The notes: a model not told the origin generated them from the letters alone. DNA of 64,000 nt from an uncultured bacterium (GCA_963807165.1 CAWDZM010000001.1:198306-262305), one strand, 5' to 3'; numbered from the stretch's first letter, positions 4,158-62,329 are shown. Numbers and translations: made by a program.

Positions 4158-4207
4158 AAAAAATAAAAAGAAACCCGCCAAGCAATGTGTTTCCATTGGG
4201 CGGGTTT
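4156..4207 (-). terminator. Terminator for the minus-strand gene 4247..4969: hairpin aaacccgcc/ggcgggttt with a T-run on the minus strand.
   Basis: 9-bp stem. The A-run on the plus strand is a T-run on the minus strand. Confidence 0.45.
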
Positions 4208-4246
4208 GAGTTTAGGCGAGCACTATCCCAGTTTTGGGATGAATGG

Positions 4247-10740: not shown

Positions 10741-10820
10741 GAATTAATTATTAAAATAAGATAAAAAAATGGAAGGCACGATGTGTGTCTTCCATTTGCT
10801 CCATGGCCGAGGCCGAGATG

Positions 10821-14116: not shown

Positions 14117-14135
14117 CACATAGAAAAGAAAAAAC

Positions 14136-14185
14136 GCCTTGTGGATTTCGTTAAAACGAATATCCAAAAGGCGTTTGAGACTCGC
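14136..14185 (-). terminator. Terminator hairpin aaacgcctt/aaggcgttt with a T-run on the minus strand, downstream of 14219..14464.
   Basis: 9-bp stem seen in the sequence. Confidence 0.35.
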
Positions 14186-14218
14186 TCTCAATAATGAGAG
14201 CCGATCAATCTTGAAGTG

Positions 14219-26114: not shown

Positions 26115-26148
26115 AATCGCGCTCGATAGTGTAATTAGTAATAGATTA

Positions 26149-26176
26149 AAAACTCCGGAGACCCCGGAGTTTTTAA
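26149..26176 (+). terminator. Rho-independent terminator: aactccgg/ccggagtt, then ttttt.
   Basis: 8-bp GC-rich stem followed by a T-run. Confidence 0.55.
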
Positions 26177-26257
26177 TCTATATTTCAATATTGACGAAAG
26201 CGCTCTATTTGTTCTACCCTACTCACAGCAAGCGCATCTGCGCATTGGGAGAATCTT

Positions 26258-32002: not shown

Positions 32003-32052
32003 AAAAATCCGCTCGTAATCAACGAGCGGAGTCACCTGCAACGATTTTACTT

Positions 32053-33291: not shown

Positions 33292-33981
33292 ATGAAAAAA
33301 TCTAATAAGATCATCGTCATCATTGTGCTCGCACTCGTCGTACTATTTGGCGTTGGGCAATTTTTCGCGGGCTCAAACATCACGGCGACGCCAAATCAAA
33401 CTACCTCGACCTCCACACAAAGCACTCCTGCCGTGCCCGCCACGCAGGTCATCGTATATGCGCCGGTCCAGCCTGCCAGCTCCACGCCAGTTGAAAAAGG
33501 CTCCTGCTGGACGAACTCCATCGCCGCGCCGTTCCGTGCCGACGCCTGGCGTTGCGCGGTGGGCAATGGCATAAGCGATCCGTGCTTCCAGATCCCGAAT
33601 AGCACAAGTACGTTGCTCTGCGCCATCAATCCGACGGTATTGAACTCTACTTCCACGTTTGTGCTTAAACTCACTCAGCCGTTGCCACAATCGGAGCCTA
33701 TACCGGGACTTCCGCCTTCCGACTGGGCATGGCTTGTTCAGCTCGCCGACGGCACATTATGTACGCCATTCACCGGGACCCTGCCCGTCACCGCCACGGG
33801 CGAAGCGGCAAACTATGGCTGCGCCCCCGGGTCACTCGGCAGTAGCACCCTCATCTTTGGCGACCTCAATGCTTCAAGTAGCGTGTGGACCGCAGAGGTA
33901 GGAACACTCTCCGAAACAAGTTCGAGCATGCCGACCATCGCCAGCTCATCCACCGTTTCCGTTGCGACAATCTGGCAATAG
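33292..33981 (+). CDS. Hypothetical secreted Cys-containing protein
   Basis: Signal/TM anchor, Thr/Ser-rich linker, 8 Cys. Confidence 0.4.
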   Translation: MKKSNKIIVIIVLALVVLFGVGQFFAGSNITATPNQTTSTSTQSTPAVPATQVIVYAPVQPASSTPVEKGSCWTNSIAAPFRADAWRCAVGNGISDPCFQIPNSTSTLLCAINPTVLNSTSTFVLKLTQPLPQSEPIPGLPPSDWAWLVQLADGTLCTPFTGTLPVTATGEAANYGCAPGSLGSSTLIFGDLNASSSVWTAEVGTLSETSSSMPTIASSSTVSVATIWQ

Positions 33982-34072
33982 GGCAAGAAACAAAAAGACC
34001 CTCTCGTTTTTGACGGAAATGCCACGTAGGAACGTGACCGTCAAAAACGAGAGGGTCTTTTTGTTTCTTGCC
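33982..34072. repeat. Perfect 35-bp inverted repeat (arms 33982-34016 and 34038-34072, 21-nt loop) exactly filling the gap between two convergent genes. Presumed bidirectional terminator or protein-binding palindrome.
   Basis: The left arm ggcaagaaacaaaaagaccctctcgtttttgacgg is the exact reverse complement of the right arm. Confidence 0.75.
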
Positions 34073-34929
34073 TACTGTGCGCTCGTTGAGGCGGAAACGG
34101 TCGCGCTCACATTTGCAGAAACCTTGAACGTCGCCAGTGCTTTGACGATTGCCATAGCATCGGCACGCGCAGAAACGAAATCCTGCTGTGCCGCGAGGAT
34201 TTTGGAATGTGCATCCTTCAATGTCGCCGTATTCGACGCCATGATGGTCGCATTGCCATTGTCCGGCGTGAGTGTTGCTACCTCGGAAGCTGCTGCGGTT
34301 GCCTGTGTGTTTGCGCCGGAGACTTTGGCGTTGAAATCGATGAGTGAAGCCTGTGCCGCCGTCACATTATTTCCGGCCGTCTGTGCGGCAGAGATCCGTG
34401 CAGAGAGTTTCGTGCCAAGATCGTTCATAATCCCAACAATTGTGAGTACGCGGTCGGAAGCCGCTTCGATCGCACCCTGAGGAAGGATCAACGCAAAAAT
34501 GCGGTATGAACCGGTAATGGACTGCACATCGGTCTTAAGGCTGCTCGTGCTATTCGCTGCCGCATCGGCGGCGATCTGCGACTGAAGGGTATTCATCGCT
34601 GTGATCTGCGCCTGGATCGATGTCGATAAGTTGCTTTTATCATTTGCGGAAAGCCGTGCCATCGCATTTACCCGAGTACTTAACGCATTGAGTGCATCAA
34701 CGCGACGGGTAATCTCTTGATCAGCCCGAGTCATGATGTTCGTGATGCGGGTCGCCAATGCCGCTGATAATTTTGCGGTAACGCTGGCCACGGTATTTCC
34801 GGAAACGGTCGCTGATGCGCTCAGCCCAACGGAAAGTCCCGTCTGCGCGAAAGCGGGGAGTGTCGCCGCGGCGCCGATCACGGCAGCCACGCCAACCGAG
34901 GTGATGACCTTGATAAATTTATTATTCAT
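34072..34929 (-). CDS. Secreted Ala/Thr-rich coiled-coil protein
   Basis: Signal peptide, low-complexity heptad-like repeats. Confidence 0.4.
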   Translation of the reverse strand: MNNKFIKVITSVGVAAVIGAAATLPAFAQTGLSVGLSASATVSGNTVASVTAKLSAALATRITNIMTRADQEITRRVDALNALSTRVNAMARLSANDKSNLSTSIQAQITAMNTLQSQIAADAAANSTSSLKTDVQSITGSYRIFALILPQGAIEAASDRVLTIVGIMNDLGTKLSARISAAQTAGNNVTAAQASLIDFNAKVSGANTQATAAASEVATLTPDNGNATIMASNTATLKDAHSKILAAQQDFVSARADAMAIVKALATFKVSANVSATVSASTSAQ

Positions 34930-34959: not shown

Positions 34960-35274
34960 TTATTCTGCCTGCTGGACCGGCTGGTCGTTCATGCTTTGTG
35001 TGACGCTCGCATTATCGGAGCTCAATCCATTCATCTGCGCGTTAACACTCGCCATATCCTGGTTGATAGACTGATCCGAATCTCCCTGCGGATACGAAGT
35101 TGACGCCGTCGCGCTCGTCCCCGAAGTCGAACTTGAGGCAACCGTTGCGCCGGTGTTGTTATACATCGCTGCAGGAGTAGTACCCGCTTGACTTGCCATC
35201 CACCACCAAATTCCTCCACCAACCACAATCACTGCGAGAACAACCCACAAAATTATTTTTCCTGTTTTTGACAT
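34960..35274 (-). CDS. Hypothetical small membrane-anchored protein
   Basis: N-terminal TM helix, Ser/Thr-rich tail. Confidence 0.3.
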   Translation of the reverse strand: MSKTGKIILWVVLAVIVVGGGIWWWMASQAGTTPAAMYNNTGATVASSSTSGTSATASTSYPQGDSDQSINQDMASVNAQMNGLSSDNASVTQSMNDQPVQQAE

Positions 35275-35395: not shown

Positions 35396-36169
35396 CTAAC
35401 GATATCCAACCTTCTTCAGCCAATCTTCATGTTCCCATTCCCACAGTTTTTTTGCGCCCAAAAACCCATTAAAATCATCCTGCCAATAAGGGAACTCCTT
35501 GAGCTCGATATCTCCATAGAGTGCCGACCATTCATGCACACAGCCGCGCATGGCGGAATTCTTCCAGTCGGTTTTGATCTTTTCCCGGCCGCCTTTCACG
35601 CGCCGAATTGCGCCACAGCGCACGCACTTTTGTATTTGATCGATCTTTAATATCCAGCGCGTCGAAAGATCCTCAAATTCGTTTTTGAGGGCATCCATGT
35701 ATGCGGACGTCTGTAGATTGTAATCGCGGTAGATCGCTTGCGAGGTTTTGATGTCGAGTACGCCGAGCTTGCCGCCGATGCGCGCGATCGCGTCCACCGT
35801 GCCCGCATAGCGATGATCGCGGTTGACGATCCGGCGCTCCACGAGTTCCGGCGTCACGTGGATATGATTCTTCTCAAAAAATTCCTGGAACGCATGCACG
35901 GCTGGCGCCACCGCTTCAGGAATGGCATCCGCCTTCCCGAGTAATAATCCCTCCACTGCCTCATGCAACATCGTGCCTTCTTCGGCGGAACGTTCTGTTG
36001 ATTCCTTTGCCGCCCAATAGCTCTTTGCCTCGCCATAGAAATAATAGAGTGCAGGCTTGGCCTTGATGCCAACGATCTTCGTCACCCGCGGATACCAATC
36101 GCCATCGATGGTATAGCCACATTGCTCCTTAAAATCGTTGATATCCTTAAATTCTTCAAATAGTGACAT
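35396..36169 (-). CDS. PD-(D/E)xK superfamily nuclease, Cas4/RecB-like, with a C-terminal Cys cluster
   Basis: Motifs GTVDAI...LDIKTS...QTSAYM (D, ExK, QxxxY) and C-x2-C...C near the C-terminus. Confidence 0.5.
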   Translation of the reverse strand: MSLFEEFKDINDFKEQCGYTIDGDWYPRVTKIVGIKAKPALYYFYGEAKSYWAAKESTERSAEEGTMLHEAVEGLLLGKADAIPEAVAPAVHAFQEFFEKNHIHVTPELVERRIVNRDHRYAGTVDAIARIGGKLGVLDIKTSQAIYRDYNLQTSAYMDALKNEFEDLSTRWILKIDQIQKCVRCGAIRRVKGGREKIKTDWKNSAMRGCVHEWSALYGDIELKEFPYWQDDFNGFLGAKKLWEWEHEDWLKKVGYR

Positions 36170-49087: not shown

Positions 49088-49168
49088 GCATCCATCATAC
49101 TCACGCGGGATTAAAAGAATATAAAAAACGGCGTAGCTCTATAAAAGAGCCACGCCGGTGGATACATT

Positions 49169-57675: not shown

Positions 57676-57753
57676 TAAAAATTTCTTAAAAGATCTTTGA
57701 TAATAAAAAAACCTCGCGAATATGCGCGCGAGGCATGCCCAAACATCGCCATA

Positions 57754-58143: not shown

Positions 58144-58240
58144 GACCGGCTCCTTACTAAGTTAAGACTAGCACTAAAATCTTTATATGGACAAATAAAA
58201 AAGGCGCAAGTCTCGAGCGAGGAACCTGTGCCTTTTTTAT

Positions 58241-58567
58241 TTAGATGGAGACCTTCAGCTTCTGGCGAATCTTGGCGCCAGAGATGCCGCGGACGAAATA
58301 CAATTTTGAGCGATGGACTTTCTTTGGTGAAGAAACGACGTCGATCTTGACGATCGAAGGCGAGTGGATCGGATACACTTTTTCCACGCCGACGCCTGCG
58401 AGTGTGGTGCGGACGGTGAACGTCGCGCCCGGCTCAGAGCCATGCTTGCGCGCGATCACTAAACCGGCGAATGGGGTTTTACCCTCATACACCTTTACCT
58501 TCGCGCCCGGCTTTATTTTTTTGAGAATTTCCTCTGAGACCATGGTTGTTATTATGTTATGCCACAA
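58241..58567 (-). CDS. rplS: 50S ribosomal protein L19
   Basis: Full-length L19 homology. Confidence 0.85.
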   Translation of the reverse strand: MWHNIITTMVSEEILKKIKPGAKVKVYEGKTPFAGLVIARKHGSEPGATFTVRTTLAGVGVEKVYPIHSPSIVKIDVVSSPKKVHRSKLYFVRGISGAKIRQKLKVSI

Positions 58568-58940: not shown

Positions 58941-59079
58941 AGTAGTATTCTATCATATTTCTGTAAAGAGCTTTTTAGTTGTCCCAATTACCTCCCTCGC
59001 TTTCGCCTGCGATCGATTCGCTGGCCAAAGAGAAGAAAGTTCGACATATATAGAACCGAAGTTTTATATATTTAGTTTA

Positions 59080-60626
<1,547 letters not shown>

Positions 60627-60802
60627 GATAAAAAGATATCGCCCAAAGTCTCAAAAACTTTGAACGTTGATCCTAATGTTATTGTTGCAACATTTGATTA
60701 CTTCTTAACGTTGCCAAAAAGAATAAATTGGGACAACTAAAAAACTCTCTCTTTTTTCCTTACCATTAAATTGTGAAGGGACAGCTCGATACAACGAGGT
60801 CT

Positions 60803-61233: not shown

Positions 61234-61476
61234 ATGAAATCAACAATCCATCCGAAATATTTCCCTCACGCCGCAGTCATCTGCGCGTGCGGCAACACGT
61301 TTACCACCGGCGCCACTCAGGAAGAGATCCGCGTTGAAATTTGCGCACAGTGCCATCCGTTCTATACCGGCGAAGAAAAGCTCATCGACACCGCAGGACG
61401 CGTAGAGAAGTTCAAATCACGCCGTGCCGCGAAGGTTGAACCGAAGGCAAAGAAGATCCGCCCGAAGAAGCAATAA
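61234..61476 (+). CDS. rpmE: 50S ribosomal protein L31 (Zn-ribbon type)
   Basis: C-x-C ... C-x2-H zinc ribbon. Full-length L31 homology. Confidence 0.85.
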
Positions 61477-61943
61477 AAATACCCACCGCTATTTCGCTCC
61501 AGCGTAAGAACGCCCACTCGCTCAACAGCAGTGGGTATTTTTATTACTTCCGTGCGGGATAATATCTCCTTCACTTTTGTCACAGTAATATCAAGATCCT
61601 CGGTCTTATCGATAAAGTCATCCATGCCGATCGCTTTCGCGAGATCATTGCGCGGCACTGATGTTTGAAACCATGGATCTTTGAGATTACTAAGGAACGC
61701 GATCTTGATATCCTTGGTCTCCGGATCCTGCTTGATCTGAAGCGCCGCATCGGTGCCCGAAACGCCCGGCATGTGGATGTCCATCAAGATAAGATCGGGA
61801 TGCATCTTCTTTGCCACATCCACCGCTTCGACCGCACTCCCGGCAGCCGCCGTATCAAAGCCGGACGCATTCAACTTAATCGACATGATCTCACGAAGAT
61901 CCTGCTCATCATCAACAACAAGGATCAGCGGTTTTTCTCTCAT
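61362..61943 (-). CDS. Single-domain response regulator (CheY-like). The native end is probably ~61530 (TAATAA in the +1 frame). The ORF as given runs antisense through rpmE because of a probable 1-nt insertion.
   Basis: The first 129 aa are a complete receiver domain paralogous to 61940..62329. Deleting one A in gaag exposes a tandem stop. Confidence 0.65.
61512..61545. terminator. Compound hairpin region between the convergent rpmE and response-regulator genes (cccact...agtggg + tattttt)
   Basis: Inverted repeats flanked by A/T runs on both strands. Confidence 0.4.
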
Positions 61944-62329
61944 GATAAAAATGCTTTTATCTTTCCGCTCAGCGTGTTCAAATCTTCGGTCTTTCGTAAA
62001 TACCCCTGAGCACCAAAATCTTGCGAGAGTTTATGATTCAATTTCTGTATTTCAAGTTGGGGATCACCAAGATTGCTAAGAAACACTACTTTAATATCCT
62101 TCGTCTCAGGATCTTCGCGCAACTTCAATAATGCGGTCGGACCATCCATCACCGGCATATTAACATCCATAAGGATCAGGTTGGGCTTGAGTGCCTTTGC
62201 CCTTTCAACCCCCTGCTCTCCGTTATCCGCGGTCTCCACGCGAAAACCCTCCGCCGTCAGCTTTACGCTGAAGATCTCGCGGAACGCGGGCTCGTCATCA
62301 ACAATCAGAATGAGGGATGATTGTTCCAT
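61940..62329 (-). CDS. Single-domain response regulator (CheY-like), tandem paralog
   Basis: 129-aa receiver. Shares [18 protein letters not shown] with its neighbour. Confidence 0.75.
   Translation of the reverse strand: MEQSSLILIVDDEPAFREIFSVKLTAEGFRVETADNGEQGVERAKALKPNLILMDVNMPVMDGPTALLKLREDPETKDIKVVFLSNLGDPQLEIQKLNHKLSQDFGAQGYLRKTEDLNTLSGKIKAFLS

Follow-up and report, generated by a model that had tools for sequence, protein, structure and literature searches.

A perfect inverted repeat between two facing genes of a Candidatus Paceibacterota bacterium, a candidate bidirectional terminator

The window analysed here, a stretch of 64,000 nt of DNA from an uncultured bacterium, contains a long inverted repeat between two facing genes (Table 1). 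No Pfam family was found for the 229-aa protein encoded on the plus strand, and neither Pfam nor NCBIfam contains a family for the 285-aa protein encoded on the minus strand. Because the latter protein lacks such a family, high expression of its gene stays a guess. The 104-aa and 285-aa genes are probably co-transcribed, and a hairpin behind the 285-aa gene would therefore end a two-gene unit. More than 300 homologues of the 285-aa protein scored above the search cut-off in the protein collection, and the few whose source is named belong to Candidatus Paceibacterota; the host is a bacterium of this group (CPR).

The neighbouring 257-aa protein (35396-36169, minus strand) gives a weak match to the PD-(D/E)XK nucleases (22.7 bits). 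It is by a wide margin the most conserved protein of the neighbourhood in the closer relatives, with 85-91% amino acid identity in 13 of 15 loci and 72-75% in the two most distant ones, and the secreted proteins that adjoin its gene are 55-80% identical among relatives. Elsewhere in the window, a complete 16S rRNA gene occupies 59074-60631 on the minus strand. As the next gene after it is an ORF and no 23S or 5S rRNA gene was found in the 64 kb, the rRNA genes are apparently unlinked.

Table 1. Genes and parts of the inverted repeat, with the second hairpin used for comparison
Feature	Position	Strand	Sequence or structure	Remarks	Basis
229-aa gene	33292..33981	+		N-terminal hydrophobic segment; stop TAG 33979-33981; faces the hairpin	
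285-aa gene	34072..34929	-		N-terminal signal-like segment; stop 34072-34074 (cta on the plus strand); faces the hairpin	
104-aa gene	34960..35274	-		30 nt upstream of the 285-aa gene, same strand; syntenic in relatives	
Left arm, outer 15 nt	33982..33996		GGCAAGAAACAAAAA	A-tract on the plus strand; U-tract template (TTTTTGTTTCTTGCC) for the minus-strand transcript	
Left stem half, 20 nt	33997..34016		GACCCTCTCGTTTTTGACGG		sequence, repeat search
Loop, 21 nt	34017..34037		AAATGCCACGTAGGAACGTGA		
Apical mini-hairpin of the loop	34023..34027 and 34032..34036		CACGT, AGGA, ACGTG	5 bp	sequence, fold
Right stem half, 20 nt	34038..34057		CCGTCAAAAACGAGAGGGTC		sequence, repeat search, fold
Right arm, outer 15 nt	34058..34072		TTTTTGTTTCTTGCC	U-tract of the plus-strand transcript	
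Second-longest hairpin of the window	61467..61550		27-nt arms, 89% complementary; 30-nt loop	comparison object only	

The inverted repeat spans 33982-34072. Its two arms (33982-34016 and 34038-34072) measure 35 nt each, are 100% complementary and are separated by 21 nt, a geometry that had been read from the sequence in the original prediction and that both the repeat search and the sequence bear out. The position of the repeat was also described correctly in the main: it begins directly after the stop of the plus-strand gene, whose TAG abuts 33982, and it fills the convergent gap, which spans 33982-34071 and measures 90 nt for a repeat of 91 nt. The last three bases of the repeat had been taken for the stop codon of the minus-strand gene, of which only base 34072 lies inside the repeat. 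When up to 3 mismatches were allowed, the arm had two sites only in the 64-kb window and none in 100 shuffles, and the runner-up perfect inverted repeat of the window has arms of 18 nt. The RNA fold of the repeat region has an energy of -78.2 kcal/mol on the plus strand (z = -11.3) and -75.8 kcal/mol on the minus strand (z = -12.2), and none of 200 shuffles gave an equal or better fold. Chance does not account for the 35-nt repeat.

A perfect palindrome may also be created during assembly, by a fold-back or by a contig mis-joined at a repeat. Some assemblers use k-mers shorter than the repeat, and the Logan contigs of run ERR10755936 (L001 and L002, k=31) stop inside it, each ending exactly 30 nt into an arm; moreover, the orientation of the loop in the window rests on a single assembly. 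However, breaks at this place are as expected of a real inverted repeat longer than k, and both contigs join 30 nt of arm to the expected flanking gene. Furthermore, a sequencing read is longer than the element (91 nt), the gene-hairpin-gene layout is found in about 20 independent metagenome contigs, and close relatives, assembled independently up to four times, have identical hairpins (L096-L099; L013, L086 and L087). An assembly artefact is thus extremely unlikely, and the locus illustrates that palindromes of such a kind break k=31 assemblies.

The arms are composed of two parts. The inner 20 nt of each arm form a G+C-containing stem, while the outer left arm (33982-33996) pairs perfectly with 34058-34072. 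On the plus strand, the stem (33997-34016 with 34038-34057) is followed without any gap by TTTTTGTTTCTT at 34058-34069; on the minus strand, the same stem is followed by TTTTTGTTTCTT, the complement of 33985-33996. The U-tract at 34058-34072 has 5 T immediately 3' of the stem and 9 T within its first 12 nt. The perfect complementarity of the arms makes the order A-tract, 20-bp stem, loop, stem and T-tract the same on both strands. The 61-nt stem-loop alone (33997-34057) has a folding energy of -39.5 kcal/mol on the plus strand and -42.0 kcal/mol on the minus strand, with z about -9. Each strand carries a stable stem, a U-rich tract and a complementary upstream A-tract, and the element lies in a tail-to-tail gap, which are the features of a bidirectional terminator.

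In the hairpins of bidirectional terminators, A's on one flank face complementary T's on the opposite one; these tails can pair and mimic the base of a longer stem (PMC1852404). Consequently, 15 of the 35 bp observed here correspond to tract-to-tract pairing. The repeat had been presented as far longer than ordinary terminators on the basis of its 35 bp; this holds in part, as the true stem of 20 bp is still long, yet not extraordinary, and the rest is A-tract/T-tract pairing. With its 20-bp stem and 21-nt loop, the element lies outside the usual size range of terminators, our consensus scan being limited to stems of at most 20 pairs and loops of 3-8 nt. The scan of the 64-kb window missed the 33982-34072 element, as the scan accepts no loop longer than 8 nt. 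Overall, it returned 24 sites against 23.1 expected, that is, no enrichment, and was used as evidence in neither direction.

Smaller hairpins of like design are present at other gene ends of the window (4158-4246, 10741-10820, 14117-14218, 26141-26181, 32003-32052, 49088-49168, 57676-57753, 58193-58242 and 61467-61550). The 64 kb contain 18 perfect inverted repeats whose arms measure 9 nt or more, compared to 5.75 in shuffles; 9 of these 18 are intergenic, in what is a small fraction of the window, and most of the nine have A/T tracts. The 33982-34072 element is the extreme member of a hairpin style that is normal for this host.

The hairpin at 61467-61550 has the same design, and GCGT-AAGA-ACGC forms its apical mini-hairpin. 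It is flanked by rpmE (61234..61476, plus strand), of which it overlaps the last codons, and by a minus-strand response-regulator ORF. A covariance model built from the arms alone of the 33982-34072 element matches 61466-61550 with 43 bits (E 5.6e-6), and the apical motif CGTARGAACG (10 nt), which has 2 exact matches in the window, is common to both hairpins. Local alignment of the two elements revealed nothing significant beyond this short motif and an A-tract plus ACCC. The response-regulator ORF (61362-61943, minus strand) is not closed by a stop codon ahead of the hairpin; it continues across the hairpin and then over about 115 nt antisense to rpmE. It encodes 193 aa, compared to 129 aa for the neighbouring paralogue (61940..62329), and residue 119 marks the approximate end of its receiver domain. 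Two readings offer themselves: the hairpin encodes the tail of this protein, or transcripts that end at the hairpin have no stop codon.

Further copies of the repeat were searched for, as the original prediction had proposed. With a blastn word size of 7, no further copy of either arm or loop came up in the 64-kb window. Among the related loci, about 430 kb in total, matches were confined to the orthologous site, with one in L014 and a weak one in L010. The exact 20-mer of the arm had 2 matches only in 185,579 species genomes (contigs of Polyangiales and Methanogenium), which is about the chance expectation; the exact 25-mer had none in JGI metagenomes, and the exact 21-nt loop none in IMG/VR. 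The flanks (...CAATAG and TACTGT...) show no target-site duplication, and the arms are not bordered by a direct repeat. An abundant REP or MITE family, which had been offered as one of three explanations, is therefore not supported, as no further copies came from the window, the related loci or the exact-word scans. The idea of a DNA uptake sequence was rejected, no word of the element recurring in the window.

In order to follow the element in relatives, 80 related loci were retrieved, and exact protein look-ups added further ones. The gene order 257 aa (PD-(D/E)XK), 104 aa and 285 aa, then the hairpin, then the facing 229-aa and 239-aa genes is kept in 18 metagenome loci and two further retrieved contigs. 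A perfect palindrome with A/T tracts is found directly after the stop of the 285-aa gene in all of the about 20 syntenic relatives except L022. The arms range from 13 to 31 nt: 31 nt in L011 and L032, 30 nt in L010, 28 nt in L014, 22-23 nt in L013, L020, L086 and L087 (22 in L013 and L020), 21 nt in L007, 19 nt in L034, 18 nt in L015 and L085, and 16 nt in L017. In several of these relatives the hairpin constitutes the whole gap, e.g. 71 of 71 nt in L011 and L032. The 31-nt-arm palindromes of these two loci (L011:3053-3133 and L032:3869-3949) take in both facing stop codons (AGTAG...CTACT). In L005, L008 and L009 the hairpin is present and the facing gene is about 950 nt distant, showing that the hairpin serves the 285-aa gene in its own right. 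The facing genes of L022 are 3 nt apart, without a hairpin (L022:2146-2153); this empty gap would be explained equally well by a deletion as by an empty MITE site.

The sequence of the hairpin drifts among these relatives and its pairing is retained. Between the window and L014, the arms differ at 3 of 28 pairs; all three differences are compensated on both arms and none leaves an unpaired position. An alignment-wide count over columns gave 133 of 184 cells paired in the orthologues. Column-wise covariation was dropped in favour of comparisons per locus and between pairs, because the perfect pairings of the orthologues sit in shifted registers. The drift of the arm sequence under conserved pairing speaks against another of the three initial suggestions, namely that the arms form a palindromic protein-binding site. 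Fixed position together with gradual drift over about 20 relatives fits vertical descent.

From its layout, its stop-to-stop position and the compensated hairpins of its orthologues, we consider it likely that the element is a bidirectional intrinsic (factor-independent) terminator of the 229-aa unit on the plus strand and of the 104-aa/285-aa unit on the minus strand. Of the three options initially offered, this one appears to fit best. Two observations stand against a plain terminator: the sizes of stem and loop are outside the ranges of ordinary scanners, and L022 manages without a hairpin. A third, the conservation of the loop, is analysed below. As a putative terminator, the element is ordinary in kind; only length, perfection and a loop that flips and is conserved among relatives set it apart.

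On either strand, transcription would proceed from the A-rich tract through the stem (20 bp) and the loop (21 nt) into TTTTTGTTTCTT. The hairpin would form while a weak rU:dA hybrid occupies the active site, and the transcript would be released. The U-tail of the released transcript could then pair with the upstream A-tract, giving a blunt 3' end that is duplexed throughout, over up to 35 bp, and that should resist 3' exonucleases. Lying between facing genes, the hairpin might also block polymerases that come from the opposite side. An extra duty in RNA stability or processing, as initially suggested, is plausible. A perfect stem of 20-35 bp is also the type of substrate cut by RNase III, and cutting would oppose the protective role.

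The hairpins were grouped into three types, represented by the window element, L014 and L010 (A), by L011, L013 and L012 (B), and by L096, L018 and the 61467 hairpin of the window (C). Comparison of their loops revealed repeated changes of orientation. Read along the 285-aa gene, the loop of the window (34017-34037) is the exact reverse complement of the L014 loop (L014:1814-1834), with 21 of 21 positions identical when flipped and 12 of 24 unflipped. The sister loci L011 and L032, whose genes are 87% identical, have flipped loops (18/19), and the L006 loop is flipped relative to those of L012, L013 and L019. The loop of the 61467-61550 hairpin is also flipped between the window and its orthologue L096 (26/30 flipped against 15/34 unflipped). 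These alignments indicate at least three independent loop inversions at the 285-aa locus and one at the second hairpin, the arms staying perfect. Loop orientation is the same across independent assemblies of close relatives (L096-L099; L013, L086 and L087).

Template switching is reported to homogenise the arms of a repeat, to make perfect stems and to invert loops (PMC8604942). Arm homogenisation and spacer inversion by template switching have been documented in RNA hairpins (PMC8794818), and small inversions associated with hairpins are common in chloroplast DNA (PMC12371153). Arm perfection and loop flipping in our hairpins would fit replication template switching, in which one arm is copied onto the other and the loop can be inverted, plus selection on pairing; the perfect symmetry of the element is probably kept by these two processes. 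Other mechanisms of inversion were rejected. An inverton, i.e. an invertible promoter switch, is not compatible with an inverted segment of 19-30 nt, which is too short for a promoter with two hexamers, and no promoter was seen by eye. A dif or recombinase site was rejected on size and for the absence of promoter and recombinase; no recombinase was found among the neighbouring genes scanned against Pfam.

The loops are conserved well above the 4-fold degenerate sites of the adjoining gene in the window, L014, L011, L032, L013, L012, L019 and L006. Between the window and L014, the 4-fold sites of the 285-aa gene are 36% identical, while the loops agree at 21 of 21 positions. The six B-type loops, a small sample from few independent lineages, have a mean identity of 0.72 in their best orientation, compared to 0.49 +/- 0.02 for shuffled loops; the 4-fold-site identity among B-type loci is 0.39-0.76, and about 0.4-0.55 in all pairs save the close pair L011-L032. 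L019 and L006 are identical at 17 of 19 loop positions, with arms that agree, by eye, at only about half of their positions. The window element, L014, L010 and the hairpins of the rpmE locus all have an apical mini-hairpin of 4-5 bp. A shared loop tetramer, GAAC, was rejected as too short for significance, and the loop motif GAGCGAG...GAGCGAG has no match in the window and an extra L006 match in apparent coding sequence.

The loop changes at a lower rate than synonymous positions do, a constraint that would not be expected of a plain spacer. The loop may thus be a protein-binding site, the terminator serving as a scaffold for a sequence-specific protein or RNA site, or the hairpin may be a processing site (e.g. 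for RNase III) that sets the half-life of the mRNA. The recurrent mini-hairpin agrees with such a role, and the tolerated inversion would fit a site recognised in duplex DNA, or in either transcript, depending on which one contains it. However, the large loop is dispensable, since orthologues have loops of only 3-4 nt (L007, L017, L085 and L005), that of L010 is different and L022 has no hairpin. In addition, the window has no further occurrence of the loop motif, few independent lineages stand behind the conservation statistics, and Rfam at curated thresholds detected only the 16S rRNA and two tRNAs in the 64-kb window, with no family at the repeat. A dedicated loop or processing site is consequently improbable as the main explanation of the element.

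Hairpins of one type are not restricted to one locus. The L018 hairpin, at the 285-aa locus (L018:882-954), and the L096 hairpin, at the rpmE locus (L096:1742-1815), are identical at 34 of 42 core positions, with an alignment z of 17.7. This match is as strong as between true orthologues, and two GAGCGAG-like direct repeats flank the mini-hairpin. Their homology shows that one hairpin type occurs at two loci in different genomes. This relationship is what would be expected of a low-copy dispersed palindromic family, REP/BIME-like or MITE-like, copied between gene ends, for which termination would be a by-product or an acquired function. The arms-only covariance match and the motif shared with 61467-61550 point in the same direction, as do the two element orientations at one locus and the occurrence there of differing hairpin types that do not track the gene tree. 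The elements of the window and L014 are moreover about 92% identical over their central 77 nt, in contrast to the 36% at 4-fold sites. Against such a family stand the lack of a second arm or loop copy outside the orthologous site in the window and the related loci, exact-word scans of three collections with two chance hits only, the absence of abutting direct repeats, the fixed position with gradual drift in relatives, and the lack of significant alignment between the two window hairpins beyond their short shared stretches. We therefore judge copying between gene ends to be an unlikely origin of the element.

A bolder proposal would combine these traits: the long palindromic terminators of the clade might be a small family of exchangeable, invertible cassettes, with a 19-30-nt loop, mini-hairpin included, under sequence selection. 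The loop would then be a recognition site for a factor acting in termination, in RNA decay or as a DNA-binding protein, or the cassette would be mobile between gene ends. We hold this proposal to be rather doubtful; if it were true, the 35-bp element of the window would be the largest known copy.

Read as a bidirectional terminator, the element is a well-documented candidate in a CPR bacterium. It offers a natural case in which A/T-tract pairing inflates the palindrome of a terminator, and one in which stems stay perfect by way of compensated changes, with synonymous divergence at saturation, as would fit template switching. The repeated flipping of loops of 19-30 nt is a further natural case that would fit template switching during replication. 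If loop conservation and the sharing of hairpin types between loci hold in complete genomes, a lineage-specific factor or a mobility mechanism might act on terminators in these very small genomes.

We compared the element with known families and systems. In Rfam searches with permissive settings, 33978-34074 matched two plastid families, RF04344 Plastid-psbA-3 (42.8 bits for a threshold of 48.4) and RF04343 Plastid-psbA-2 (36.9 bits for a threshold of 55.8). These 3'UTR hairpins are likewise long, A/U-rich and located at a 3' end, with an ACCCUCU/AGAGGG core. However, the scores are below both thresholds and the lineages are unrelated. None of 9 orthologous loci matched either family at E <= 0.01, so that the resemblance is due to chance or convergence; the permissive matches as a whole, which include miRNA precursors, were rejected as generic or chance.

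The REP/BIME elements of enterobacteria and the MITEs are also extragenic palindromes at 3' ends, often lie between facing genes and are able to affect termination or RNA stability, and our hairpins share with them one cross-locus relationship among relatives. In contrast to these families, the element has no multiple copies in the DNA searched and no target-site duplication, its arms are perfect and its locus is fixed. The small inversions of chloroplast DNA and the template switches of RNA hairpins resemble our case in their dynamics, with both loop orientations in close relatives, perfect arms and compensated changes of several bases (PMC12371153, PMC8794818, PMC8604942). The inverted loops observed here measure 19-30 nt, whereas those of an rRNA survey typically measure 4 nt (PMC8794818). 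They further differ in that they belong to a bacterial terminator candidate and that the sequence of the loop is conserved.

Our literature search found no study of terminators or palindromic repeats in Paceibacterota or CPR bacteria; comparison is with terminators of other bacteria. In E. coli, hairpins in the overlap zone of facing genes trap polymerases from either direction, as observed by SEnd-seq (bioRxiv 10.1101/2022.10.23.513370). These sites are said to be unlike intrinsic terminators (bioRxiv 10.1101/2022.10.23.513370), whereas the window element has a canonical U-tract on both strands. A close resemblance is with the bidirectional terminators described with TransTermHP and in Bacillus cereus (PMC1852404, PMC5381666). 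As in our candidate element, a single hairpin in a tail-to-tail gap serves two strands, the A/T tracts pair and extend the palindrome, and pairing is kept by compensatory change (PMC1852404, PMC5381666). Terminators of facing genes are also under stronger constraint (PMC5381666). The stem of 20 bp observed here is to be compared with a commonest length of 11 bp in the organisms with the longest stems (PMC1852404). The element is set apart from known bidirectional terminators by its 21-nt loop with a mini-hairpin, by the conservation of this loop, by arms that are 100% complementary over 35 nt and by its CPR host.
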